A stretch of 64,000 bases of DNA from Nitrospiraceae bacterium (GCA_003599505.1 QZKO01000053.1:3378-67377), one strand, 5' to 3'. Positions 20,045 through 56,233 are shown, numbered from the stretch's first letter. Program-made: numbers and translations. The notes: a model not told the origin generated them from the letters alone.

Positions 20045-20908
20045 ATGGCAAGACCGTTGCGTATTGAATACGAGGGAGCGGTGTATCATGTGACGGCAAG
20101 AGGTAATGAGCGTAAGGCGATTTTCAAAGAAGACCCGGATCGCAGTCTGTTTCTGGACATTCTGTATAAGGCAAACAAGAGATATAACATTCTGTGTCAT
20201 GCCTATTGTTTGATGGATAATCACTACCATCTGATTATGGAAACGCCTGAAGGGAACCTGTCAAAAGGGATGAGGCAGCTAAATGGCGTGTACACTCTGA
20301 TGTTCAATAAAGAGCACAGGCGGGTGGGGCATATTTTTCAGGGCAGATATAAAGCGATATTAATTCAGAAGGAGAGCCATTTGCTTGAAGTATGCAGATA
20401 TGTTGTATTAAACCCGGTAAGGGCACGGGCGGTAGAAAAGCCTGAGGAATGGAAGTGGAGCAGTTATCAGGCAACATCCGGGAAAAGCAAGCCGCATGAG
20501 TGTCTGAGTAGGGACTGGATACTCGGGCAATTTGCAGAGAGCAGGATGGCGGCGCAGAAGAGATATGAAGACTTTGTGATGGCAGGCATAGGAGAAAATG
20601 GAATCTGGAAAAAGGTCAAGGGCCAGAGTCTTTTGGGAGATGATGATTTTGTCGATACTTTGATCACGTATGTAAAAGGATATGAAGAAATGGTGGAAAT
20701 TCCTAAAGTCCAAAGATATATGAGCAGGCCGGAGATGAGGGAATTATTTAAAGAGACTGTTTTTAATAACAGGCAATCCAGAAATAAAAAGATTTTGGAA
20801 GCCGTATACAAATATGGTTATACACAGAAGGAAGTCGCTGACTATCTGGGGAAGCATTATACTACGATAAGCGGGATAATCGGCAAAATTCTAAAATCAA
20901 AGACCTGA
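20045..20908 (+). mobile_element. IS200-like Y1 (HUH) transposase, COG1943/RayT-like, with C-terminal DnaA-C-like HTH
   Basis: YHVTARGNERKAIF...YCLMDNHYHLIMET (HUH) ...GHIFQGRYKA, with a C-terminal KKILEAVYKYGYTQKEVADYLG HTH. Confidence 0.7.
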
Positions 20909-22812: not shown

Positions 22813-24114
22813 CTATCTCTTCCTCAACGCCTCTTCAACCGTCTTGATCGCGCAGAACTCTCCGCACATGCTGCAAACGTGTGATTCAGTCGGGGGGACT
22901 TCCGCGCGCCACTGTCTGACCTTATCGGGATTAAGGCTCAATGCTATTTGACCATTCCAGTCAAGGGCCTTTCTCCTTTTCGCCATTTCGATGTCGATGT
23001 CGATCGCGCCCTTGACGCCCTTCGCGATATCAGCGGCGTGGGCCGCTATTTTTGACGCGATGACCCCTTCTTTTACGTCTTCGATATTCGGAAGTCTGAT
23101 GTGTTCCGACGGAGTCACGTAACAGAGAAAATCAGCGCCTGCCGCCCCCGCAATTGCTCCACCAATGGCTGCGGCGATGTGGTCATACCCCATCGCTATG
23201 TCCGTCACGAGCGGTCCGAGAACATAGAACGGCGCGCCTTTGCAAATCTCCTTCTGTAATTTGATATTGAGCTCAACCTGGTTCAGGGGCACATGACCGG
23301 GGCCTTCGATTATAACCTGCACCCCTGCCTCTACTGCTTTGTCTCTCAGTTCCCCAAGCGTTAAAAGCTCATCAAGCTGAGTTCTGTCCGTGGCATCCGC
23401 GAGACACCCGGGACGGGCGCCGTCGCCGAGACTCAATGTGAGGTCATATTTTCTCGCAAGCTCAAGGAGCCTGTCATACTGTTCATACAGGGGGTTTTCC
23501 CTGTCATTGTAAATCATCCACTCGACAAGGAACGCTCCGCCCCTGCTTACAATATCAAGTATCCTTCCTTCCTCCCGGAGCGTCTGTATGGTCTTTCTGG
23601 TAAGCCCGCAGTGGACGGTCACAAAATCAACACCCTGCTCCGCGTGTTCTTCAATGATTGTAAAGAGATCGTCAGAGCTCATCCTGGAGATTGAGCCTCT
23701 CTCTCCGGCAGCCTTTGCAACCGCTTCATAGATTGGAACGGTCCCAACCGCGACAGGCGATTTTCTGAGGAGAAGTTTTCTGATGTCCTTTATCGGACCG
23801 CCTGTTGAAAGGTCCATCACCGCGTCAGCCCCGTATTTCACCAGAACATCGAGCTTCTCCATCTCATCGTCAAGAGAAATTTTGTCCCTTGACGTCCCGA
23901 TATTCGCGTTTATCTTCGTCTTCAACCCTCTGCCTATGCCGAGAGGTTTTATGTCATGAAATGCGTTCCTCGATATGACACTGACGCCGGATGCAATGTC
24001 CTGAGAAAGCTGCTCAGGTCCAATGCCCTCATCGAGAGCCACCTGCTTCACTTCATCGGTAATTATGCCTTTCCGAGCAAGGTCGATTCGCGTATGCTGC
24101 AAAGATTTGTTCAT
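22813..24114 (-). CDS. thiC: Phosphomethylpyrimidine synthase
   Basis: ThiC fold with C-terminal CSMCGEFCA. Confidence 0.9.
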   Translation of the reverse strand: MNKSLQHTRIDLARKGIITDEVKQVALDEGIGPEQLSQDIASGVSVISRNAFHDIKPLGIGRGLKTKINANIGTSRDKISLDDEMEKLDVLVKYGADAVMDLSTGGPIKDIRKLLLRKSPVAVGTVPIYEAVAKAAGERGSISRMSSDDLFTIIEEHAEQGVDFVTVHCGLTRKTIQTLREEGRILDIVSRGGAFLVEWMIYNDRENPLYEQYDRLLELARKYDLTLSLGDGARPGCLADATDRTQLDELLTLGELRDKAVEAGVQVIIEGPGHVPLNQVELNIKLQKEICKGAPFYVLGPLVTDIAMGYDHIAAAIGGAIAGAAGADFLCYVTPSEHIRLPNIEDVKEGVIASKIAAHAADIAKGVKGAIDIDIEMAKRRKALDWNGQIALSLNPDKVRQWRAEVPPTESHVCSMCGEFCAIKTVEEALRKR

Positions 24115-25780: not shown

Positions 25781-25815
25781 AGCTATAAGCTGATAGCTGT
25801 AAGCTGTCAGCTAAA
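25781..25815. repeat. 35-bp heptad array AGCTATA AGCTGAT AGCTGTA AGCTGTC AGCTAAA
   Basis: It fills the thiH-thiS gap exactly, with the same AGCT core and 5x7 architecture as the array at 1961. Confidence 0.8.
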
Positions 25816-27115
25816 TATGCACGTCCCTTTTCCCTTCCTCAATCAACTTAAATTTCTCTGCAAGACCGTTGCTGCTTCTTTTTATTTCACGGCCCAGCAT
25901 CTGCTTCAATTGCTCCTTTACCTCCCCTGAAGCGGAATCCTCGGCATACTCCTTCAGAGACAGGAGTGCGTTTTCCCGACAAAAGTTTTTCATGGTTTCT
26001 TTTTCCGCGAGAAGTCTGAAACTCTCTCCGCTTCTGCCTTCCCGGTAACACGCGGTGCATAGACTCGGCACAAGACCGAGGCTGATTATCTTCCCGATAA
26101 CTTCTTCGAGACTCCTCCTGTCTCCTACTTCAAACTGTTCAGTGTCTCCGTTCCCGATGTATCCCCAGGGGCTCGTCTTTGAGCCTGCGGATATCTGGGA
26201 CGCGCCCGTCTGTATCAACTCGTCTCTGAGTCCTGACGGCTCCCTCGTTGAAATGACTACGCCGACATAGGGCAGGGCAAGTCTGTAAATTGCGACGATC
26301 TTCCTGAAATCTTCATCAGAAACTTTAAAGCGTGAATTATGCGCTGCCGAACCCTGCGCAGGCTGAAGCCGGGGGACCGAAAGTGTGTGAGGCCCGAATC
26401 CATACTTGTTTATCAACCGCCTGCTGTGCGCGATCAGGGCCCCGACTTCCCACCGCCAGTCATAAAGACCGAGGAGCACGCCCATGCCGACGTCCTTAAA
26501 ACCTGCCTCAATCGCCCTGTCCATAACATTGAGCCGCCACGCATAGTCTGCCTTTGCTCCTTTCCGGTGCATATGCCGGTAGGTCGGGATGTGATAGGTT
26601 TCCTGAAAACACTGGTAGACTCCTATGCCGCATTCTTTTAATCTCCTGAAATCCTCCACGCTCATGGGAGCCGTATTGGCGTGAAGGATGCGGATGTCGG
26701 TATTTTTATAGACCGCGTTCACAGACTGCTCGATATAATCGATTCCGGCGAGTTTCGGGTGTTCGCTTGCCACAAGGAGCAGTCTTTTATAACCTCTGCC
26801 GGACAAGAGCTTCGCCTCTTCCACCGTTTCATTTATGCTAAGGGTCTTTCTCCTCGCGTCTCTGTTGCCTGTCCTGAAACCGCAGTAAAGGCAGTCGTTA
26901 ACGCATTCATTGGAAAGATAAAGCGGCGCAAAGAGCACAATCCTTTTCCCGTAAACCTTTTCTTTCACGATGCGGGCCGCGTTAAAGACCTCACCCCAGA
27001 GATCCTTATCTTCCAGCTCAAGGAGCGCCGACACCTCGGCAAGATTTAAAACTTGCAGGTCCAGTGACCTGGCGAGGATATCGCGGATGCGTGACGCGTA
27101 GGTCCTGCAAGTCAT
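25811..27115 (-). CDS. thiH: Radical-SAM 2-iminoacetate synthase ThiH-like (HydG-like is the alternative)
   Basis: CVNDCLYCGF radical-SAM cluster motif. It is the first gene of the thi operon, directly behind the TPP riboswitch. Confidence 0.65.
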   Translation of the reverse strand: MTCRTYASRIRDILARSLDLQVLNLAEVSALLELEDKDLWGEVFNAARIVKEKVYGKRIVLFAPLYLSNECVNDCLYCGFRTGNRDARRKTLSINETVEEAKLLSGRGYKRLLLVASEHPKLAGIDYIEQSVNAVYKNTDIRILHANTAPMSVEDFRRLKECGIGVYQCFQETYHIPTYRHMHRKGAKADYAWRLNVMDRAIEAGFKDVGMGVLLGLYDWRWEVGALIAHSRRLINKYGFGPHTLSVPRLQPAQGSAAHNSRFKVSDEDFRKIVAIYRLALPYVGVVISTREPSGLRDELIQTGASQISAGSKTSPWGYIGNGDTEQFEVGDRRSLEEVIGKIISLGLVPSLCTACYREGRSGESFRLLAEKETMKNFCRENALLSLKEYAEDSASGEVKEQLKQMLGREIKRSSNGLAEKFKLIEEGKRDVHI

Positions 27116-27153: not shown

Positions 27154-27300
27154 CAAAAAAACCGCATCCCCGTAAACATCTTCCCGGGAATGCGGTCAAC
27201 GCTCTGCTTTTCCCTTTCCTTCGCCGGTATTATCCGGTTCAGGTTCAGAGGGTCATCCCGATACTCCGGGAACTCTCAGGCTCTGATGCCTCCCCTAGGG
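27154..27300 (-). promoter_or_regulatory. TPP (THI-box) riboswitch with terminator hairpin
   Basis: The minus strand reads GGGGAGGC..GCCUGAGA..GAUGACCC..GAACCUGAACCGGAUAAUACCGGCGAAGGAA, followed by a hairpin CCGCAUUCCCG/CGGGGAUGCGG and a U7 tract. Confidence 0.85.
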
Positions 27301-27439
27301 TAAGTTAAGTATACTTCCGTAAACAAAGACGTGTCAAGCAGCCCTCCTGAAGTGCTTAACTTATAAAGATAAAAATCCGAAAACAATATTCAGCAGGGCT
27401 TTGATTAAAATGGAAACATAAAATAGCGGGGAGGGTCCA

Positions 27440-30597: not shown

Positions 30598-31551
30598 ATG
30601 TTTCACAATTTGGAGAGGAACAAAACGGTCGGCAGAAAAATTTTAACAACTTTATTCGCCTTATTATTATTCAGCCTGTTATTGGGCAGTCAAACGGTTT
30701 TTGCAGGCGCCCAGGCGGTTGTTGAAACCTCGTGGCTGGCGGAGAATTTAAAAAAACCCGGCATAAAAATAGTATATGTTGCAACAACAAACCAGAACGA
30801 TAAAGCGGCCTTTGACGGCAAACACATCCCCGGTTCCGTATATCTTGATATACCTTCGTTAATGGGAGTTGTCGGGAGCGGCAATCCCCCTGATAAGGCA
30901 GGCTTCGAGGCGCTTATGGGCAAGCTCGGGGTCAGCAATAGTAATCATGTGATAATTTATACCGGATTCGGGGGGCATTCTTTCGGGGCCCCCTTTGCTG
31001 CCGGCACCTTCTGGCTGATGGATTATTTCGGCCATAACAACGTAAGTATCCTCAACGGCGGGATGAAAAAATGGGCTGATGAGAAACGTGAGACTACCTC
31101 CGATCCCGCAAAGATAACCCCGACTGCCTATAAGGCGGCGGCCCCGGACGCATCCATCTTCGCTGACGCTGATTATGTATTGAAGAATATCAAGAACCCC
31201 AAAGTAGCGCTGCTTGACACCCGGGCACATGATGAATACACCGGGGCCAATCCGCTGGGGAATAAGAGGGCCGGGCACATACCGGGCTCGGTAAACGTTG
31301 ATTATTATATAACCAATCTCAACCCGAATGAGACCTTTAAATCGGTCGGCGACCTTAAGGCCGCCTATGAATCAAAGGGTGTTACAAAGGACAAAGAAAT
31401 TATTTCATATTGCCAGGGAGGGATACGCGCCGCTCATTCCTACGTAGTGCTTAAATACCTGCTTGGTTATCCTAAAGTCAGGAACTATGTAGGCTCGATA
31501 GGCGAGTGGGCGAATAAACTCGATCCGGCAAAATACCCGCTGGAGAAGTAA
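30598..31551 (+). CDS. Two-domain rhodanese sulfurtransferase (TST/MST-like) with signal peptide
   Basis: Active-site loop CQGGIRAAHS. Confidence 0.75.
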   Translation: MFHNLERNKTVGRKILTTLFALLLFSLLLGSQTVFAGAQAVVETSWLAENLKKPGIKIVYVATTNQNDKAAFDGKHIPGSVYLDIPSLMGVVGSGNPPDKAGFEALMGKLGVSNSNHVIIYTGFGGHSFGAPFAAGTFWLMDYFGHNNVSILNGGMKKWADEKRETTSDPAKITPTAYKAAAPDASIFADADYVLKNIKNPKVALLDTRAHDEYTGANPLGNKRAGHIPGSVNVDYYITNLNPNETFKSVGDLKAAYESKGVTKDKEIISYCQGGIRAAHSYVVLKYLLGYPKVRNYVGSIGEWANKLDPAKYPLEK

Positions 31552-32825: not shown

Positions 32826-34253
32826 GTGGAAGAAAACGGAACAAAAAACAAAATGTGGGCTTTGCTCATCACAGGCGCTTTGATACTCATCAGTTTTATG
32901 TATTATAAGACGAATGTCTTTTATATGTATCTGATTGCGTACATCTGGTTCGGATTCGCATACGGGATGATGCTGCAATACGGAAGATTCTGCTTTGCCT
33001 CTGCATCGAGAGACCTTTTTGCCGCGGGCGTTCCGAGAATGGCAGTGGGCATCCTTGTAGCCCTTATGTTCTTCAGCCTTATCCAGGCGACTCTTGCTTC
33101 AACCAATATGAGCACATTCCATCCCGCTCCTTTCGGGATTCACACCCTGATAGCAGGCATGATCTTCGGTGTAGGCATGGTCCTTTCAGGAGGCTGCGCG
33201 TCGGGTTCGCTTTATAAGATCGGCGAGGGGAACATGACGTCTTTCCTGGCCGCATTCTTCGGACTCTGCATCGGTCAGGCTGTATTCGTGGACGTAAAGT
33301 GGTTCGATTTTCTGATGCCCCAGAAGTGGGTGGCTGCCGCAGCCGCAAAAGGACTTCCCGCGGATAAAATGACCTCTTCTTTTGATACATACCTTGCAGG
33401 GTACGTCTGGGACCAGCCGACGGTCCGGATGTCAGACCTGCCGGCGATCAAGGAGGCCCTGCCCGGCGCATCCAAATATTTCATTGGCGACGCGCTTCTG
33501 ACAGCCCTTATCCCGGCGGTAATACTTCTTATCGTAATCTATGCCTTTTATATAAGAAAAGGTTTTCTTAAGAAACGCGCAAAGCAAAAAGGCGGCGCAG
33601 CCACCGGCTTTGGCGATGATGTCGCAGGCATCTGGAATATGGTAACCGCTTCCCAGAGAACAACGATTATGGGTGTTTTAATCGGTATCGTTGCAGGACT
33701 CCATATATTTGTTATGAAAGGAATGCAGAACAGGTTTGCCGTTGACAATTTCGGAAGGCTTCTCACAAGAATGGGGTTTACGGGAGATGTTTCAACAAGT
33801 GGAAAAGTTTTTGACCCGGGATACTGGTATATCACAAGCCAGGAAGGTCAGTTCGGGGCATGGATCCTGGAAAAATTCGGCTGGAATATGCATGACAACA
33901 TATTTTTTGGCGTCAATAACGGTCTGCCGGAACCATGGCGCAATCCGGCGCTCTGGATGTCCTTCGGTATTATCTTTGGAGCAATGGTAATGGCACGGCT
34001 AAGCAATGAATATAAATTTAAAATGCCCAAGGGCGAGCTTATCGTATGGGGACTTATGGGTGGGTTGCTGATGGGTTTTGGTTCAAGGCCCGCCCTTGGC
34101 TGCAACATCGGAGCTTTCTTTATAAGAGTTGCGGGCGGCGACCCGAGCGGCTGGTTATATGGCGTCGGCATGGTCGGCGGCGCTTTCATCGGCGTAAAAT
34201 TCTTCAACTGGTGGTCTGAGAGGAAAATGGCAAAGGAAATGGAAGCTTTCTAA
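32826..34253 (+). CDS. YeeE/YedE-family thiosulfate/sulfur transporter (GTG start)
   Basis: Two repeat halves carrying GMVLSGGCASGSLYK and ALGCNIGAFF. Confidence 0.75.
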   Translation: MEENGTKNKMWALLITGALILISFMYYKTNVFYMYLIAYIWFGFAYGMMLQYGRFCFASASRDLFAAGVPRMAVGILVALMFFSLIQATLASTNMSTFHPAPFGIHTLIAGMIFGVGMVLSGGCASGSLYKIGEGNMTSFLAAFFGLCIGQAVFVDVKWFDFLMPQKWVAAAAAKGLPADKMTSSFDTYLAGYVWDQPTVRMSDLPAIKEALPGASKYFIGDALLTALIPAVILLIVIYAFYIRKGFLKKRAKQKGGAATGFGDDVAGIWNMVTASQRTTIMGVLIGIVAGLHIFVMKGMQNRFAVDNFGRLLTRMGFTGDVSTSGKVFDPGYWYITSQEGQFGAWILEKFGWNMHDNIFFGVNNGLPEPWRNPALWMSFGIIFGAMVMARLSNEYKFKMPKGELIVWGLMGGLLMGFGSRPALGCNIGAFFIRVAGGDPSGWLYGVGMVGGAFIGVKFFNWWSERKMAKEMEAF

Positions 34254-39739: not shown

Positions 39740-40951
39740 TCAGGATTTTCCTTTAAGAATTCTGTTCCAGTAGAACCACGGCATCAGGTACCTTATCAAT
39801 AACCACATACTGTAGCGCTCCTTGGTCGGGTCCAGCGGGAAAGTAGGGAGAAATTTGTTGTCGTGGTCAAATTCTGCAAGTACAATTTTGCCGTATCCTG
39901 TAATGAGCGGGCAGGATGTATAGCCGTTATATTTGTCAGGCAGTTCAGTCAGAGACTTGCGTTCGATGGCAGCGAGAAGATTTTTCACGACAACCGGGGC
40001 CTGTTTATGTACGGCCGCTCCTGTCTTTGTATCACCTGCGTTTGAGACGTCCCCCAGGCTGAAAACATTCTTGTACCGGTTGTGCTGAAGGGTGTCTCTG
40101 TTTATGTCAACCCATCCGAACGGGTCATCTTTAACTGCGAGGGGACTGTTTTTGATAAAGTCAGGCGCCGAAGCCAGAGGGGAGACGTGAAGCATGTCGT
40201 ATTGAGCAGTGACCTGCTCTTTGCCGTCGCCTTTTATAACTTCAAACACCGCTTCTCTGGTTTTACTTCTGACCTCGATTAACGTGGCCTGATAGGTCAC
40301 TCTTATTCCATACCGCTTGACTACTTTCAGCAGGACCTCATTAATTTCCTTGACCCTGAGCAGCCCCGGTTTCCCTGTAAAAAAGGAGATATCGGATTTT
40401 TCCAATATGCCCCTTTTTCTGAAATTGTCCGCTGCAAGATACATTATTTTCTGAGGAGCTCCGCCGCATTTATTGAAACCGGCAGGCTGTGTGAATACCA
40501 CCTTGCCGCCTGTAAAATTCTTAATGCATTCATAAGTGTAGGGAGCAATATCAAAGCGATAGATCGAGCAGACCCCGTTTTTCCCCAATGCCTCGGATAA
40601 ACCTTTTACAGCGTTCCAGTTCAACTGCGCGCCGCAACAGACAATAAGAAAATTGTAAGTAATCTGTTCGCCTGATTTGGTTATGATCAGATTTTTTTCA
40701 GGCTCGAATTTGTCGGCGCCGTCTTTTATCCATTTGACTTGCGGAGGAATATAATCGGCCTCGTTACGCACTGTATCATTTATGTTGAAAACACCGCCGC
40801 CCACGAGCGTCCAGCCCGGCTGGTAGTAATGTTTGTCGGAAGGTTCTACTATAGCAATATCAAGTTTTGAATTGCGGCGCAGAAGCTGGGCAGCAACGGA
40901 AATACCGGCATTCCCCCCCCCGATGATAAGAATTTGATGATGTTCGTTCAT
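39740..40951 (-). CDS. sqr: Sulfide:quinone oxidoreductase / FCSD-like flavoprotein
   Basis: ILIIGGGNAG with a pyridine-nucleotide disulfide oxidoreductase fold. Confidence 0.6.
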   Translation of the reverse strand: MNEHHQILIIGGGNAGISVAAQLLRRNSKLDIAIVEPSDKHYYQPGWTLVGGGVFNINDTVRNEADYIPPQVKWIKDGADKFEPEKNLIITKSGEQITYNFLIVCCGAQLNWNAVKGLSEALGKNGVCSIYRFDIAPYTYECIKNFTGGKVVFTQPAGFNKCGGAPQKIMYLAADNFRKRGILEKSDISFFTGKPGLLRVKEINEVLLKVVKRYGIRVTYQATLIEVRSKTREAVFEVIKGDGKEQVTAQYDMLHVSPLASAPDFIKNSPLAVKDDPFGWVDINRDTLQHNRYKNVFSLGDVSNAGDTKTGAAVHKQAPVVVKNLLAAIERKSLTELPDKYNGYTSCPLITGYGKIVLAEFDHDNKFLPTFPLDPTKERYSMWLLIRYLMPWFYWNRILKGKS

Positions 40952-45826: not shown

Positions 45827-46159
45827 TTACTTCATGGCAAATTTTCTCGCCATCTTCTGTCCTTCTTCAAGCCTTTCCAGCAGAACCTCTCTCATAAGGC
45901 TGCATGCCATGATGACCTTGGGGTTGGCGACTTTATAATAAACATTGTTACCTTCTCTTCTCGATGAAAGTATCCCCTTCTGTTTCATGACAGCAAGATG
46001 CTGGGAGACATTTGCAGGTGATATTCCCAGAATATTTACAAGCTCTCCAACAGCCAATTCCTTATCTCCAAGGGCATTCAGAATTTCTATTCTCTTGGCA
46101 TTACCAAGCGTCTTGCATATGTCGGCGTGGATTTCATGAATTTTCTTGCTCATTATCAT
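45827..46159 (-). CDS. ArsR/SmtB-family transcriptional regulator
   Basis: Winged HTH ELAVGELVNILGISPANVSQHLAVMKQKGIL. Confidence 0.8.
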   Translation of the reverse strand: MIMSKKIHEIHADICKTLGNAKRIEILNALGDKELAVGELVNILGISPANVSQHLAVMKQKGILSSRREGNNVYYKVANPKVIMACSLMREVLLERLEEGQKMARKFAMK

Positions 46160-48147: not shown

Positions 48148-48501
48148 TTAATAAATCAATGTTGTCTTTGCATTTTTAACAAGCTCTGCTATCTCAGCGC
48201 CGGTTATTACCTTAATCCCTTCAGGGATATCCGCCGTATCCATGTCCTGTTCTCTGATTGAATGCTTATCCGCGTATACGTCAACCCCCATCTCCATACA
48301 GTCCGTCAGGGCCTCCCCCAGATTTGTAAAGCCTGTGTCCGTATCGTCCTGCCCCTGCTTTGCAAGCAAAACCCCGGCGTCAATCAGAATGAGGTCTACA
48401 CCTAATTCATCCGCAACGCCGCCCATGGCATGCCTTACAGCCTCTGCAGCATTAATATCACCATAAGGCGACCTTCTCAAAATAATCGCAATGTCTTTCA
48501 T
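48148..48501 (-). CDS. dsrF: DsrF/TusC-like protein
   Basis: MKDIAIILRRSPYG...LILIDAGV. Confidence 0.6.
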   Translation of the reverse strand: MKDIAIILRRSPYGDINAAEAVRHAMGGVADELGVDLILIDAGVLLAKQGQDDTDTGFTNLGEALTDCMEMGVDVYADKHSIREQDMDTADIPEGIKVITGAEIAELVKNAKTTLIY

Positions 48502-48510
48502 AATATCCTC

Positions 48511-48867
48511 CTATGCTCCCATATTCAGCCAGATATCGGTTTCACCCATTGTCTTAAAAAGACCCTTGAGTGTGCCGACTTCCGCGTTATCAAGATAATC
48601 ATTCTTCGCTGCACGGCGAAAGTTAAGACATCCGCCTCAGAGATATACCCTTAAACCTTTCTCGATAAGCTCTGTGAACTTCTCCTCAGCATTTGTTATA
48701 CCCTTTGCTTTCTGCCCTTTTAAAAAACAATACACCCCGTCACCTGACGCGATGACGTTGACCGTATGTCCTTTACTCAGGGCAGATTCCGCAATCTTTA
48801 CCGTGGTAAGGGTGTTCTCATAAGAATACGGCGATGTGCCTAACAACAGTGTAAAAGTCTTACTCAT
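48511..48867 (-). CDS. dsrE: DsrE/TusD-like protein with in-frame UGA (candidate selenocysteine) at 48637-48639
   Basis: The 76-aa track ORF stops at TGA and the frame continues GGCLNFRRAAKNDYL...WLNMGA* (TusD C-terminal half). The UGA falls at or near the conserved active-site Cys, giving a UxxC motif. A hairpin follows immediately downstream. Confidence 0.6.
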
Positions 48868-48902
48868 CTTATCCTCCTAAGTTTGGATTTTTTATCCTTC
48901 CC

Positions 48903-50090
48903 CTATTTCTTCTTTAATTCAATCCAGGTTACAAAAATGTAAAAAGCCAGAAGTATTGCCAGCACGCCAATTAAAGAACCTCCCCAGCCAAGCTTTTCAG
49001 GCAGGAATACCGTTTTTCCGTAGAGCCACCCCTTTCCCGCCTGTTCTCCATAAAGAGGCACCCATAATCCCGCAACGAGCATTGCCCCAAGCACAGCAAA
49101 CCAGTGTCTTATATATCCCTCGGCCGACCGCCAGAGCATGCCGGCTGCTCAACCTCCCGTCATGACCATTCCGAACCCGAAAAGCGCCCCGCCTATGATA
49201 CTGTGCATGCCTGCCGGAAGGATGAACATATCAGCAGGCCTGAAGCCGTTTGCTTTTATAATGGCAAACCCCACCGTCCCTATCATCAGGCTAAGCAGGA
49301 GATTCCGCATGGGCTCATTGTGCTTTGTTGTAAAGACTTCCCTGAACCCGGCGGATATACAGAAAGAGGACCTCTGGAATACTATCCCGAAGGCAGCGCC
49401 GAAGAGCAGTATGCCTCCCAGGACATATTTTCCTGTGACAAAATAAACTGAGGCTATGATAAACATTGTGATTGCAACAACAAGACCTATTAACGGATAA
49501 TTAACTACCCTTGTAATCTTTTTTTCAGGAACTGTTTTCAGATCAACGAGTTCTGTGAACTCCATTTTTTCCGCCTCTCTGAAGGCCTGCCATATCATGA
49601 ATTTTCCGCCGAAATAAGCGCCTGCGAGCAAACCTGTCATCATATATAATCCGCTCAGAGACAGGGACATGATTGATGAATAAAATCCTCCAAAGATGCA
49701 GGCGCCGACAAGGAAGCTGCCGAGACCCATCAGGGCCCCGCCGGCAAAACCCTGTATATAACCGGATGTTGAATCTTTTCTGAGTTTAAATTGTCGTGAA
49801 AGGAGGGCGGAGATAAGGGTGCCGAATATCAGTCCGAAATTCAGAATGCTGATAATACTCAGATGGGGCGGCGTTAAGGTCCCCCAGGGCGGCGTTATAT
49901 TCAAACCTGCCAGCCTGTACATCCATATGCCCCAATCAGCAATAGCCGGATAAATACCGCCCAGGGGCATCAGGAATAAAAACATTAATATATTCAGGAA
50001 CGCAACCAGAATGCCGCCAAGCCACAGCGGCCAGGTCTTCTCAAAGAGATTCTTATATAGTTTTCCATGAAAATATTCTGCGAGTGTCAT
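48903..50090 (-). CDS. YeeE/YedE-family transporter with in-frame UGA (candidate selenocysteine) at 49149-49151
   Basis: Track ORFs 49149..50090 and 48903..49139 are in the same frame, separated by TGA plus 3 codons. The junction GFGMVMTGG-U-AAGMLWR aligns with the GGCxSG motif of the paralogue at 32826. Confidence 0.6.
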
Positions 50091-50108: not shown

Positions 50109-50450
50109 CTATTTTTTTCTGTCCCCGTGATACTTGCCTTTTTTTGTAACGGGACAACATTCAGGTCCCGGCAGTTCGTCAGGGTAATCTTTTTTGAGTA
50201 TTTCGAGCAGATCAGGGATGAGCGGGTTTTTCAGAAAGTAACATCTGAGCCTTCCGTCTACAAAGTAATCAATGATGCCCGCATGCCTTAATGCGGAAAG
50301 ATGCTGGGAGACATTGGACTGGCTGAGGTCGAGAAATCCCTCGAGGTCGCTGACGCACTTTACGCCCTTTATCAGTTCTTCTAAAATTGCGATCCTTGCC
50401 GGATGCGCTACCAGTTTTATCAGATCTATTCGTGATGATAACTCATGCAT
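50109..50450 (-). CDS. ArsR-family regulator with Cys-rich C-terminus
   Basis: HTH SDLEGFLDLSQSNVSQHLSALRHAG. Confidence 0.75.
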   Translation of the reverse strand: MHELSSRIDLIKLVAHPARIAILEELIKGVKCVSDLEGFLDLSQSNVSQHLSALRHAGIIDYFVDGRLRCYFLKNPLIPDLLEILKKDYPDELPGPECCPVTKKGKYHGDRKK

Positions 50451-50512: not shown

Positions 50513-52642
50513 TTATCCGACCCGGACTTTCCACGCCGTCACGTCTTTTTTGTCCTCAAGGATCACGCCTTTCTCCTCAAGCTCTTTCCTTATCGCGTCG
50601 GCCGCAGCCCATTCTTTCTTTTTCCTCGCGTCCTGCCGTTCCGAGATTTTCTGAAGGAGGGCCTCTTCGGAAAGCTCTATCTTTTTTACCTTCATCAACG
50701 AACGATACCATTCATCGGGGGTCTTGTTGAATATGTTCAGAACGCCGCCTATGTCGGCAAGCAGGTCGCTTGTCCTGACGACGAGCTCCTTTGCCTTCTG
50801 ACCGGAAGGCTTTGAATCGAGAAATCTGTTTACTTCCCTGATGAGCTCAAAGATAAATCCCAGCGCCGACGCCGTATTGAAGTCGTCGTTCATAGCGTGA
50901 TGAAATTTATCTTTAAAGGCCGAAAGCATTTTTTCGAGGTCGGCGGAGGTGCCGGGCTTTTCGGCGGTCCCTGCTGTTTCAAGAAAATCCTTGATCCTTG
51001 TGACCGTTGTGTAATATCTGTCTATGGAGAGCTCCGCCTCGGTCAACTGGGCGTCTGAAAATTCTATCGGGCTCCTGTAATGCGACGTGAGCAGGAAGTA
51101 GCGGACAACCTCCGGTTCGTATTTTTCCAGTATCTCCCTGATGGTGAAAAAATTGCCGAGGGATTTCGACATCTTCTCTTTGTCGACGGTAATAAACCCG
51201 TTGTGTATCCAGTATTTCACAAAGGGCTTTCCGGTAAGGGCTTCGCTCTGGGCGATCTCATTTTCATGATGAGGGAAAATAAGGTCGGCCCCGCCGCCGT
51301 GTATGTCGAAGCTCTCGCCGAGGTATTTTGACGACATCGCGGTGCACTCGATATGCCATCCGGGCCTGCCTTTCCCCCACGGGCTTTCCCACCACGGCTC
51401 GCCTTCTTTTGAAGATTTCCACAGGGCGAAATCAAGGGGGCTCCTCTTCCTTTCGTCGATATCGACCCTCGCGCCGGCGACAAGGTCGTCGGTGTTCTTT
51501 TTCGAGAGCCTGCCGTATGAATGGAATTTGCTCACTTCAAAATAGACGTCGCCGTTTATGCTGTACGCATAATCTTTGTCGACCAGTCCCCTGATCGTCT
51601 CTATCATCTCCTTTATATGGTCCGTCGCGTCAGGCTCGATGTCGGCCCTGCTTACGCCTAACATTTCCATGTCCCTGTAATATTCTTCCGTGTATTTTTT
51701 CGCGATCACATCATATGTAACGTTGTCCTTCGCGGCCCGCGCTATAATCTTGTCGTCGATATCGGTTATGTTCCTCACGTGGGTCACCTGAAAGCCTTTA
51801 TACCTCAAATATCTTTTGATAATGTCGAAGACGACCGCGCTCCGCGCGTGTCCGAGATGGCAGACGTCATAAGCCGTTATCCCGCATACATACATTTTCA
51901 CATGGCCCGGGACCAGGGGGACGAAATCCTCTTTTTTACCGCTCATCGTGTTGTAAACCTTTATAGTTTCACCTTTGCCTTCCAATGCGCCGATTCTCCT
52001 TTCAAGTTCTGAAATATGGTTCTTCATTTCTTCGAATTTTTCTTCGACAGGGTCGGGGATATGCACATGGTCCAGCATCTCCACGAGGCCTTCATTGAAG
52101 ATCTTGACGACTTTCTTTTTTATCACCCTGCCGGGGACCCCCACAACGATGGAATTGTCAGGCACGGAATGAAGCACCACGGAGTTGGCGCCTATCTTGA
52201 CATTGCTGCCGATGGTGATCGCCCCTAAAATCTTGGTCCCCGCGCCTACGACTACGTTATTGCCGAGGGTAGGGTGCCTTTTGCCCTTTTCCTTGCCGGT
52301 CCCCCCAAGGGTCACGCCCTGATAGAGGAGCACATTTTCCCCGATCTCCGCCGTCTCCCCGATAACAACCCCCATCCCGTGATCTATGAAAAACCCCTTT
52401 CCTATCTTCGCGGCAGGGTGTATTTCAATGCCAGTGAGAAATCTTGCCAGTTGAGACAAAAAACGCGGTAAAACGGGAAGATGCATTTTATACAGCAAAT
52501 GGTTGACCCTGTAAAAAATAATCGCGTGAAACCCGGCGTAAGAAAGAATGACTTCAAGTTTGCTCCTTGCTGCCGGGTCCATCCTGAAGACGGTCTGGAA
52601 ATCGTGCCTTATGTCATTTAATAAACCCATTATCCCATCCAA
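50513..52642 (-). CDS. cysE-cysS: Serine O-acetyltransferase (CysE) fused to cysteine--tRNA ligase (CysS) in one 709-aa ORF
   Basis: N-terminal hexapeptide-repeat CysE ([29 protein letters not shown]). C-terminal CysS with CHLGHAR (HIGH) and KMSKSLGN. No stop codon between them. Confidence 0.7.
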
Positions 52643-53754: not shown

Positions 53755-54726
53755 TTAATCCTCATATGGACCAAGGAACCGTTCGCCGTTGAAATGAATC
53801 AAGTGTGTTGGAGACTCCGCAATCCAGACCTCCGTCTCCCAGGAAATTTCGTTGAGATATTTTATCATGGTTTTTCTTTCAAGAAATGCTGTCACGTAGA
53901 CTATGCCGGCCTTTGATCCGGTAAACAGCTCCTTCAATTCCTGTCTGCGCTTTGGATTTACAGGGCCGTGGCTGGTTACCGCTTCGATTAGAACAAGCCA
54001 GTTCTTCTCAACGTGATGCACTACGACATCCGGCATCTTCCCGTGTTCTTCTATTTCTACACCTAATACCTCAAGGGCACCAGAATCGAGATATGCCCAT
54101 TTCGTTTCTGTATCGCCGACATAAACTACGCGCCCACCCGGGGTGAAAAGTGGACAGAAATCGTCAATAATCTTCTTTACCAATATATTGTGCCCGCCGG
54201 GCGAAAGGCTGATTTCTTTTCCGTCTGCAAGTCGTACCGGAATCCGACGCATGTCCCGTTCATGCTCATACAGCTTCTTTAAAGTTTCTACATTATGCAA
54301 GTACTCGCGCAGATGTTTTCTCCAGTTTCGCGTCTTAAATTCCCGGAGCAGTTTCAAGGCAGAAGGCCCAATCTGATAAACAGCCTTGGGGCTGTTTGTT
54401 GGCCTTGAAGATTTATCAGGATTAGGCACAATAAGCCCGGCCTGTATAAATTGATGGACTGTTTGACGGCGCACTGTCTCCCGCGTTTTTGGCGCGTACC
54501 GCTTACCATAGTGCATAGCGATGAAATCCATCATGGGCGTGATGCCCATCAAAGGGTCGCTTGCAGAAATCCATGCATCTTCAGGTTTGAGGTCCAGCAA
54601 CGAAAGCAGAGTCAATGCTGAACGATCATTTTGCTGCTGCCGAGGGAAACCAAGCGTGTCTAATATTTCAAGCGTCTCTTTAATCTTTTGATTGGCTTTC
54701 TTTGAGTTGACTTTTTTAGCCTTCAA
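53755..54726 (-). CDS. BsuBI/PstI-family type II restriction endonuclease
   Basis: 323 aa, matching the size and family of R.PstI. It overlaps the methyltransferase gene by 11 nt. Confidence 0.6.
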   Translation of the reverse strand: MKAKKVNSKKANQKIKETLEILDTLGFPRQQQNDRSALTLLSLLDLKPEDAWISASDPLMGITPMMDFIAMHYGKRYAPKTRETVRRQTVHQFIQAGLIVPNPDKSSRPTNSPKAVYQIGPSALKLLREFKTRNWRKHLREYLHNVETLKKLYEHERDMRRIPVRLADGKEISLSPGGHNILVKKIIDDFCPLFTPGGRVVYVGDTETKWAYLDSGALEVLGVEIEEHGKMPDVVVHHVEKNWLVLIEAVTSHGPVNPKRRQELKELFTGSKAGIVYVTAFLERKTMIKYLNEISWETEVWIAESPTHLIHFNGERFLGPYED

Positions 54727-56233
54727 TTACGGCTTCCTTCTCCAGAATCGTATCAACAGTTGCCTGGTCCGGCATTTGATGTTTCACGTGCGCGCCAAGT
54801 CTAAGTAATTGCTCGCGGGAAGGGTACCGCATTTTTCGAAGGTCTGTGGCATTGACTTGAGTATGTCCGCTGAAAAGCCGGAAGTGCTGGTCGAAGAGTG
54901 AAGAATTCAGATATAATGCCAAACCTCTTGCCATGCTGCCGGATAAGCCATTCCCTTTTGCATGAAAATAATTCAGATGGTTCTCAAACCCCAAAAATGG
55001 AGCTTTAATTTTCCTGGGATCATAGATAGCAGCCACGACGCGCCGTTTCTCTTCTTTTGCCGTAAAACGCTTGGTTACCACATAATATCCGCTCGGCAAT
55101 AATAAGTCTCTCGTATCCGGTGTGTCAACAATTGCATTCGGCTTCTTCCCCGATTCCGCCGGCCATTTAACAAAGCCGGACTCAAAATGGCAAGGATATA
55201 TAAGCGGTACAGCTCCATCTTCCGGCAGAGAGCGCAAGAATTCGTGAGCGCGAAAATCTACAACTCTTCCTGTAGAGACGTCCAGGCCGAGTTTGGCGAG
55301 TGAGCTTGAAAACACCTCAACCCTCTCCATTATGCTGTCGTCGGCATCATTTAAGGCAAGGTGAACGAAAGAGTCACGGTCACTTGGCGAAACTACAAGA
55401 GCGTATGGCACACGGCGGCTTCTCAATTTTTCAAAATCCACGCCGTCAGAAGATGAAAGAATTAATCGTTCCGGTTTTCGTCCACCTTTTATCATGTGAT
55501 AGATTATATTTTCCTGAAGCACATCATCATCACCGAACGCTTTTTTACGCGATTCAAACACATGAATCCTTTGAAGGCTCATCATATCTAACATCGCTAT
55601 TCTGAAACGACGAAAATATGGCCCGTTACAGAAACTCCTCGGCGTAATCGCCACCAATTCGCCGCCGGGTTCCAGTAAACGAGCGGCCAGCCAGACAAAC
55701 GCTGAGTAAAGATTTGATACTTCTATGCCCGTTTTGTCGAGTAAGCGACGTGTAGTTGATTGTCCATGGATTTTTTTGTAGGGAGGATTGAGGATTGCAT
55801 GAGTGAAACGTTCATGCTGGTCGTCAAATAAACGATTCTCCGACTGAACTGCAGCAGCAGCGATAAATTCTTCCTGGCGTATCTCTCCGTGAAAGGTGAT
55901 ACCGGCTTCCCTGCATCGCAACTCACAATGCTCCATCGTTTCTTTCAGAAATGGCAATATGCTTTGGTCATTTTCGTATGAAACTATGCTAATAGAGAGC
56001 GGTCGGCGCTTCCTTGCAATAAATGTCTCTACACACGCCGCAAACAACGAACCGGCTCCGGCTCCGGCATCCAACATACGCACATGTTTAATATCTTCAT
56101 GAAACAGCGACGCCATAAACCGCGCAATCTTTGCGGGCGTCAGAAACTGTCCAATTAGCGCACGATCATCCCGGCAACTGCTGCCATTAAAAGACTTTCG
56201 AACAATATCAAGAGGGGTTGTCAGGTCTATCAT
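54716..56233 (-). CDS. N6-adenine DNA methyltransferase (M.PstI/M.BsuBI-like)
   Basis: Motif I LDAGAGAGSLF and motif IV NPPY. At 505 aa it matches M.PstI in size. Confidence 0.7.
   Translation of the reverse strand: MIDLTTPLDIVRKSFNGSSCRDDRALIGQFLTPAKIARFMASLFHEDIKHVRMLDAGAGAGSLFAACVETFIARKRRPLSISIVSYENDQSILPFLKETMEHCELRCREAGITFHGEIRQEEFIAAAAVQSENRLFDDQHERFTHAILNPPYKKIHGQSTTRRLLDKTGIEVSNLYSAFVWLAARLLEPGGELVAITPRSFCNGPYFRRFRIAMLDMMSLQRIHVFESRKKAFGDDDVLQENIIYHMIKGGRKPERLILSSSDGVDFEKLRSRRVPYALVVSPSDRDSFVHLALNDADDSIMERVEVFSSSLAKLGLDVSTGRVVDFRAHEFLRSLPEDGAVPLIYPCHFESGFVKWPAESGKKPNAIVDTPDTRDLLLPSGYYVVTKRFTAKEEKRRVVAAIYDPRKIKAPFLGFENHLNYFHAKGNGLSGSMARGLALYLNSSLFDQHFRLFSGHTQVNATDLRKMRYPSREQLLRLGAHVKHQMPDQATVDTILEKEAVIEG

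Follow-up and report, generated by a model that had tools for sequence, protein, structure and literature searches.

A DsrE-like protein with the Pfam domain PF02635 and a UxxC motif, in which U stands for selenocysteine (Sec), has been on lists of prokaryotic selenoproteins since the Sargasso Sea analysis. A DsrE-like selenoprotein was found in Desulfovibrio vulgaris, and a 2026 review of the prokaryotic selenoproteome lists the DsrE-like UxxC protein together with a YeeE/YedE selenoprotein (PF04143) carrying a GUxSG motif. These published DsrE-like proteins were predicted from an in-frame UGA and Cys-containing homologues, and they stand in these lists as bare entries, with neither an operon context nor a function. 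Here we describe dsrE, a gene of this family, in a 64,000-nucleotide (nt) stretch of DNA from Nitrospiraceae bacterium (GCA_003599505.1, QZKO01000053.1:3378-67377; hereafter the window, with positions counted from its first letter). Judged by its sequence, the gene is almost certainly a genuine selenoprotein gene that has been systematically mis-annotated, with a second one adjacent to it. Both features that define the family, the PF02635 domain and the UxxC motif, are present in the window DsrE, and it was predicted in the same way as the published proteins. It differs from them in its context, as the E subunit of an E-F-H trio within an operon encoding sulfide:quinone reductase (SQR), in at least 80 Nitrospirota species.

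The DsrEFH proteins of A. vinosum (2HY5) and the TusBCD proteins of E. coli (2D1P) are, like the window trio, encoded by three DsrE-fold genes in the order E-F-H, and in all of them only the E subunit has a reactive residue. In both DsrE and TusD, the persulfide-accepting residue is Cys78, with which Sec77 of the window protein aligns. The window E subunit differs in having Sec instead of Cys and an extra resolving Cys at +3, the trio does not reach the equivalog scores, and its partners are ArsR, SQR, DsrE2-like and MMPL proteins, with no dsrAB, dsrC, tusA, tusE or mnmA among the window genes scanned. Among solved structures, the closest in sequence is E. coli YchN (1JX7), a functionally uncharacterised homo-oligomer that stands alone, without F or H partners; it has about 117 residues and C-x-x-C-x-x-R-G at the same place, with Cys where the window DsrE has Sec. 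The S. aureus cst operon (CstR, TauE, CstA with a DsrE-like domain, CstB and SQR) likewise joins a repressor-controlled SQR to a DsrE-fold sulfurtransferase in the handling of sulfide and sulfane sulfur, but it has a repressor of another family, a multidomain CstA in place of the E-F-H trio, a persulfide dioxygenase and no Sec.

The role of Cys78 as the persulfide acceptor of A. vinosum DsrE is given by Plum-Jensen et al. (ISME J 2026), in whose work a non-canonical DsrEFH type II is described from Desulfobacterota and Nitrospirota, often near yeeE/yedE and tusA. There, a YeeE-DsrEFH arrangement is reported for Dissulfurispira, the active residue is Cys67, synteny with tusA is noted, persulfide or polysulfide transfer was assayed by mass spectrometry, the rare absence of the Cys (0.7% of sequences) is put down to sequencing errors, and selenocysteine is not mentioned. 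Dissulfurispiraceae genomes are among the loci related to ours. Whereas the type II proteins of cable bacteria escaped annotation by sequence, the window proteins are recognised by Pfam; no TusA-family gene was found among the operon genes scanned with Pfam and NCBIfam, and 5 of the 81 loci have a yeeE gene next to the trio.

From the comparisons below, we put at about 0.88 the probability that UGA77 of the window dsrE is decoded as Sec by means of a downstream selenocysteine insertion sequence (SECIS) hairpin, to give a full 118-residue DsrE-fold protein acting as the E subunit of a DsrEFH-type sulfur complex. The frame opens with an ATG at 48867 on the minus strand, with the ribosome-binding site AGGAGGATAAG 5' of it, and runs for 76 codons to ...GLRVYL before the TGA, beyond which 41 in-frame codons (GGCLNFRRAAKNDYLDNAEVGTLKGLFKTMGETDIWLNMGA) lead to the terminal TAG. 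Scanned with Cys in place of U, the read-through product spans the whole Pfam DsrE domain, aligning with PF02635 from profile position 2 to 111 out of 116 (E=4.4e-17). An open frame of 41 codons after a stop is not rare on its own, the chance in a single sequence being approximately (61/64)^41, or about 0.14. It is far beyond chance here, because the codon is TGA in 81 of 81 orthologues and the conservation downstream is of the coding type.

The UGA lies at the position of the active-site Cys. One full-length 118-residue Cys homologue, P0034 (56% identity), has KGLSVELCGTCLVFRG opposite KGLRVYL-U-GGCLNFRR of the window, reading KGLSVELCGTC with Cys at the UGA position. An exhaustive HMMER search with this homologue returned 238 relatives, and among the 121 with 100-150 residues the U77 column was Cys in 113 and the +3 column was Cys in 101. 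After cleaning, an alignment of 83 sequences had the U77 column as its only invariant one (Cys), with G71, C80, R84 and G85 at least 90% conserved in a C-x-x-C-x-x-x-R-G motif. When the profile of this alignment was compared with all PDB sequences, 1JX7 (E. coli YchN) scored best (E=3.9e-28), followed by A. vinosum DsrE (2HY5_A, 2.5e-20) and E. coli TusD (2D1P_A, 1.6e-16). The invariant Cys aligned with ...LDMVVC-VAAAQRRG of DsrE and ...VALNIC-VAAALRRG of TusD, which by count is native residue 78 in each. An earlier sequence-only reading of the window had noticed that the frame continues for 41 codons past ...GLRVYL, that dsrF and dsrH come next in order, and that the UGA falls on the sulfur-accepting Cys of TusD/DsrE. 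Its sequence facts were correct, the DsrF-like and DsrH-like genes are recognised by Pfam, and the alignment with Cys homologues pairs U77 with Cys78. The U-G-G-C arrangement it took for a UxxC motif is real, with Cys80 in 66 of 66 tabulated orthologues, and its mention of DsrE-like selenoproteins in bacterial surveys agrees with the published lists.

To follow the codon across species, we assembled 81 orthologues, comprising the window and 80 loci (one genome per species, Nitrospirota/Thermodesulfovibrionia) retrieved by tblastn as matches aligning across the stop. Codon 77 was TGA in all 81, while the terminal stops were mixed (40 TAG, 25 TGA and 16 TAA). Entropy at the three codon positions, computed on the 66 orthologues alignable without length differences, averaged 0.39/0.27/1.41 upstream of the TGA, 0.40/0.24/1.22 downstream of it and 1.78/1.77/1.89 past the terminal stop. 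The profile is much the same on both sides of the TGA, which indicates translation of the 41 codons past it, with purifying selection acting on them. TGA is the stop of 13 of the 33 longest open reading frames (ORFs) in the window, and a genome-wide reassignment of UGA was rejected for this reason.

Databases hold the gene in truncated form. Searching with the read-through product gave 398 matches, and 108 of the 120 listed had exactly 76 residues, with 78-100% identity; more than 100 protein clusters in this identity range all end at exactly 76 residues, and the named matches come from metagenome-assembled genomes of Nitrospirota/Thermodesulfovibrionales. A whole-database search with a Dissulfurispiraceae DsrE query gave further clusters cut in the same way, all of its matches being metagenome-derived fragments. 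The contig of the window bears the NCBI locus tags C4526_08370 and C4526_08380. The TGA is also present in six distant homologues (L084, L085 and L087-L090), and the Sec-type dsrE thus reaches lineages that are far more remote (37-49% identity), some of them high in GC. The Sec form is not confined to Nitrospirota. Most of the distant Sec-type loci with enough flank have arsR and/or dsrF-like and dsrH-like genes nearby.

Immediately 5' of the UGA, 55 of 65 orthologues use CTC for the Leu at codon 76 (48640-48642, minus strand). The synonymous entropy of this codon, 0.69, is lower than at any other apart from those of the hairpin described below, and the bias may be a context effect on UGA decoding.

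Downstream of the UGA, RNAalifold predicted a consensus hairpin at alignment columns 18-37 (C-UUUCGC, loop CGUGCR, GCGAAR-G), 15-34 nt 3' of the UGA. The stem has 6 bp in the window and 7-8 bp in most orthologues, in which a C-G pair is added at 48622/48603. Pairing held in 89.5% of cells across the orthologues, as against 47-58% in controls with the 3' arm slid. Synonymous variation collapses in the codons of the hairpin: Arg84 is CGC in 66/66, Arg85 is CGT in 60/64 and Ala87 is GCG in 62/62, corresponding to synonymous entropies of 0, 0.39 and 0, as compared with a mean of 1.74 bits (minimum 0.69) for the other 37 conserved four- or six-fold degenerate codons. The stem begins 15 nt and the apical loop 22 nt past the UGA (21 nt between), and the loop contains a G; these distances and the loop G fit the usual geometry of a bacterial SECIS.

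The six distant Sec homologues have G-x-C after the TGA (T-G-C in one), and in all of them a stable hairpin, built from another stem sequence, lies at the same position or a few nt away: AGCCGC/GCGGCU in L089, CUUCCGU/ACGGGAG in L090, CUUCCGC/GCGGAAG with a GGUCU loop in L085, and GCGAUUC/GAAUCGC in both L084 and L088. In the Cys homologue, the RNA at this place folds only weakly and into an unrelated structure. When the two distant Sec sequences that share the register were added to the alignment, 4 of 7 pairs showed compensatory changes, a level reached in 0 of 500 shuffles. The sequence-only reading had instead placed a 6-bp hairpin, GGCGGA/UUCGCC, directly after the UGA. This hairpin can form in the window, but of its six pairs, two are lost in 35% and 51% of the 81 orthologues, respectively; these two use freely varying third positions of Gly codons, so the structure is not maintained. 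The two hairpins are mutually exclusive, and it is the one 15-34 nt downstream that is conserved.

Directly upstream of dsrE lies another recoded gene, encoding a yeeE/yedE-like membrane protein (Pfam PF04143, E=5.9e-43). In the alignment with S. thermophila YeeE (6LEO), its U314 falls on the essential central Cys, Cys91 (...GMVLAGGC-ASG), and in this respect the protein resembles the listed YeeE/YedE selenoproteins, although its motif is GUAAG and theirs GUxSG. Among homologues, 35 database clusters end exactly before the U column, and all 52 full-length proteins have Cys there. By tblastn over the 80 related loci, a yeeE gene inserted between arsR and dsrE is confined to L001-L004, the four closest relatives of the window, and in all of these, as in the window, it has the TGA. 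Two recoded genes side by side provide independent evidence of programmed UGA decoding in this organism.

The two halves of the permease match TsuA (6LEO) crosswise, residues 228-335 corresponding to chain positions 6-112 and residues 62-170 to positions 218-328, which may reflect a circular permutation or an effect of the internal repeat of the family. The protein is colinear with the NCBIfam model 'selenium metabolism membrane protein YedE/FdhT', whose half order it shares and which gives its best score (143.7 bits, against a cut-off of 350 bits). In one of the four relatives (L004), the 40-kb contig QZJG01000024.1 carries two different Sec-type truncated yeeE genes (P0274 and P0281; C4560_04915 and C4560_04965). 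The window itself has a second YeeE/YedE-family gene at 32826-34253 on the plus strand, encoding 475 residues, in which no in-frame TGA was noticed.

The surrounding genes were compared by tblastn of window proteins against the 80 related loci, and the coordinates are collected in Table 1. The conserved row consists of arsR, dsrE(U), dsrF-like, dsrH-like and the gene for a 395-residue flavoprotein, often followed by a second arsR, a DsrE2-like gene and an MMPL transporter gene. The Cys-type locus of P0034 has the same arsR-E-F-H-flavoprotein arrangement, and the heading arsR is upstream of dsrE in most related loci as well as in the Cys-type locus. The dsrF-like gene is present in 79 of 80 loci, the only one without it (L046) being on a contig that ends about 90 nt past dsrE, and the dsrH-like gene in 76 of 80; most loci lacking F or H reach the contig end. 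The best PDB match of the DsrF-like protein is A. vinosum DsrF (2HY5_B, E=1.1e-5), and its active-site position has no Cys (Asp, aligned by eye); the DsrH-like protein matches TM0979 (1RHX) and DsrH (2HY5_C). The flavoprotein matches the SQRs of A. aeolicus (3HYV, E=6e-100) and A. ferrooxidans (E=2e-95), with Cys opposite Cys at three places in the printed alignment, which we take to be the catalytic cysteines. In L081, the Cys-type locus, its gene is 3' of dsrH, as it is in most of the related loci.

Table 1 Features of the recoded operon in the window
Feature	Position	Strand	Basis or remark
Heading ArsR/SmtB-family regulator	50109..50450	minus	weak similarity to BigR-type sensors
yeeE/yedE-like membrane protein gene	48903..50090	minus	313 codons, UGA, 81 codons; Pfam
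In-frame UGA in yeeE (GG-U-AAG)	49149..49151	minus	Cys91 position of S. thermophila YeeE/TsuA
dsrE-like gene, predicted selenoprotein	48511..48867	minus	118 codons including UGA77; terminal TAG 48511-48513
In-frame UGA probably read as Sec (U77), first residue of U-G-G-C	48637..48639	minus	conserved TGA; Cys in homologues
Candidate bacterial SECIS hairpin, UUUCGC-CGUGCA-GCGAAG	48604..48621	minus	RNAalifold consensus, synonymous collapse, distant hairpins
dsrF-like gene, 117 residues	48148..48501	minus	Pfam DsrE E=1.1e-12
dsrH-like gene, 93 residues	47856..48137	minus	Pfam DsrH E=3.5e-8
Type I SQR, 395 residues	46658..47845	minus	PDB matches, operon partner
DsrE2-like protein (PF13686), 140 residues	46219..46641	minus	frequent operon member
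ArsR/SmtB-family regulator, second copy	45827..46159	minus	family scans, related loci
MMPL/RND-type membrane transporter, 792 residues	43355..45733	minus	ends conserved row; downstream in most long-enough loci

The trio had been called a canonical dsrEFH operon in the sequence-only reading, which is too strong. The DsrF-like protein scored 32.3 bits against the TusC model (cut-off 94.15) and the DsrH-like protein 35.8 bits against TusB (cut-off 49.2), both under the curated cut-offs, and the DsrE-like protein matched no NCBIfam model at E<=0.001. No linkage to dsrAB/dsrC or to tusA/tusE/mnmA was found among the window genes scanned, and YchN is the nearest solved relative of the E subunit. By its sequence, the trio is best described as DsrEFH-like, with an E subunit nearest YchN.

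Some related loci have an insertion between arsR and dsrE. That of L031 (3979-5975, plus strand) is about 2 kb and encodes a 262-residue membrane protein and a 383-residue protein in which the haem-binding motif CxxCH occurs five times. In the window, a 709-residue ORF (50513-52642, minus strand) located just upstream of the operon fuses CysE (residues 11-177) to a full-length cysteinyl-tRNA synthetase, CysRS (residues 227-705); it stands beside the operon in 0 of the 80 related loci.

In the mechanism that we propose, the hairpin 15-34 nt past the UGA would act as a bacterial SECIS recruiting SelB and Sec-tRNA(Sec), allowing the ribosome to make all 118 residues. The selenol at position 77 would replace the persulfide-carrying Cys78 of DsrE/TusD, and Cys80 of U-G-G-C could form a selenenylsulfide with U77. 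DsrE(U) would join the Cys-less DsrF-like and the DsrH-like subunits in a DsrEFH-type complex that, as gene order and the chemistry of Cys78 suggest, may accept or resolve on selenolate 77 the sulfane sulfur coming from the co-transcribed type I SQR. An ArsR-family repressor responsive to thiols or persulfides would presumably control the operon, to which the window and its four closest relatives would have added a YeeE-type permease with Sec at the central Cys91 position.

Several observations weigh against this proposal. Neither ARAGORN, run on the window and 60 flanking loci, nor the NCBIfam and Pfam scans of approximately 45 window ORFs detected selA, selB, selD or tRNA-Sec in the 64-kb window or the 60 tRNA-scanned loci. 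The hairpin is short: its fold in the window has -5.8 kcal/mol (z = -1.1 against shuffles), and the 65 nt 3' of the UGA folded alone gave z = -0.47. Neither value is significant, and single-sequence energy is thus no evidence here. No compensatory changes were found among the 81 close orthologues, the covariation coming from two distant sequences, and for the proposed role downstream of SQR, gene order is the only indication. Finally, no Rfam family matched, either at the gathering threshold over the whole window or at a permissive E-value over 48300-49400. The few SECIS models of Rfam would not be expected to cover this lineage, and this null result is therefore uninformative. On the decoding machinery, Thermodesulfovibrio genomes are reported to have complete selABCD, plus a tRNA-Sec-like tRNA(Cys), selC* (Mukai et al.), and a groundwater Nitrospirae lineage has been reported with selB and selC.

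Among the competing explanations, a true stop at the UGA would leave a 76-residue protein, with the following 41 codons untranslated, forming a separate small gene or belonging to a decaying one. Gene callers everywhere annotate dsrE in this way, and the missing Sec machinery in the window agrees with it. However, the 76-residue fragment lacks the active-site motif and one third of the DsrE fold, and the codons just past the UGA (GGC GGA TGT CTT AAC ...) include no in-frame start codon by eye. Furthermore, a decaying or split gene would not hold TGA specifically in 81/81 loci while terminal stops vary, and variation dominated by third positions for exactly 41 codons, with conservation lost past the second stop, is unlike decay. 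We consider a true stop very improbable. Even less credit is due to a sequencing or assembly error hiding a TGT or TGC, for which only its a priori possibility speaks, since the same TGA occurs in 80 genomes assembled independently in different studies, and also in assemblies from ENA, JGI, NCBI and Logan. Taken together, the conserved TGA, the downstream coding constraint and the ordinary use of TGA as a stop elsewhere in the window rule out sequencing error, recent nonsense mutation and gene decay alike; the nonsense pseudogene or sequencing error that the sequence-only reading had kept as its alternative is contradicted by this constraint, the 81/81 TGA codons and the independent assemblies. 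Another possibility is that an opal-suppressor tRNA(Cys) of the selC* type inserts Cys at the UGA, or Sec and Cys according to selenium supply. Genes for such tRNAs are reported from Thermodesulfovibrio and probable Nitrospirae contigs, with UGA-to-Cys suppression shown in E. coli (Mukai et al.); all non-Sec homologues have Cys at this position, so Cys insertion would yield a functional protein; and the unusual CysE-CysRS fusion gene lies just upstream. Yet the genomes carrying selC* have complete selABCD (Mukai et al.), so Sec decoding is available in the lineage, and no selC*-type tRNA was found in the window. The fusion contains a full-length CysS and not the truncated cysS* type, and accompanies the operon in no related locus. 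If Cys were intended, TGT or TGC would be expected repeatedly across 81 species, whereas it was seen in 0/81. Suppression by selC* therefore appears improbable, though less so than a true stop.

A different alternative accepts the Sec residue and assigns the module to selenium itself, in the trafficking or detoxification of selenide or selenosulfide, with the YedE/FdhT-like permease as a selenium transporter. The permease is colinear with the 'selenium metabolism' model that scores best for it, its halves match the thiosulfate transporter TsuA crosswise and not in order, and YedF, itself in genomic linkage with SelD, contains DsrE-like CGxC domains. Against this, the YedE/FdhT score is far under its cut-off, the permease is found in only 5 of 81 loci while SQR is the conserved partner, and neither selD nor other selenium-metabolism genes are adjacent. 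We regard this as unlikely, and as a weaker alternative to a role of the Sec-containing DsrE in handling sulfane sulfur.

Both selenoprotein families, DsrE-like and YeeE/YedE, have been published, and the locus involves no new recoding mechanism or protein family. What it adds is a place for a listed but uncharacterised selenoprotein family, as the predicted reactive residue of a DsrEFH-type sulfur carrier encoded beside SQR. Sec might be used there as a better nucleophile for sulfane sulfur, and the locus suggests that these bacteria need selenium to handle sulfide. In current records, more than 100 protein clusters and the genomes of 80 species have dsrE as a 76-residue fragment without an active site, and the permease is entered as a 313-residue fragment; as a consequence, both genes are missed or misjudged in metabolic reconstructions of how Nitrospirota of groundwater and the deep subsurface cycle sulfur. 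More tentatively, and with somewhat less than even odds, a non-canonical DsrEFH sulfur relay, possibly 'type II', could in its usual form in subsurface Thermodesulfovibrionia be a selenoenzyme with Sec as its reactive residue, wired to SQR and, in some lineages, to a Sec-YeeE permease. If so, studies of how DsrEFH is distributed may have miscounted these genes, or misread them, because the E subunit is cut at 76 residues, and sulfide oxidation or the handling of sulfane sulfur in these organisms would depend on selenium supply.

Elsewhere in the window, besides the second YeeE/YedE-family gene, two further genes relate to sulfur metabolism by their family: a tandem-rhodanese sulfurtransferase (30598-31551, plus strand) and a flavoprotein (39740-40951, minus strand) whose best NCBIfam model is the 'selenoprotein subtype' of type III SQR, at 209.6 bits against a cut-off of 525. 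A thiamine pyrophosphate (TPP) riboswitch (27199-27306, minus strand; 70 bits) precedes a ThiH/HydG-type radical SAM gene (25811-27115), with thiC further downstream at 22813-24114. The window also contains a BsuBI/PstI-type restriction endonuclease adjoining a DNA methyltransferase (53755-56233, minus strand) and a REP-associated tyrosine transposase (20045-20908, plus strand).

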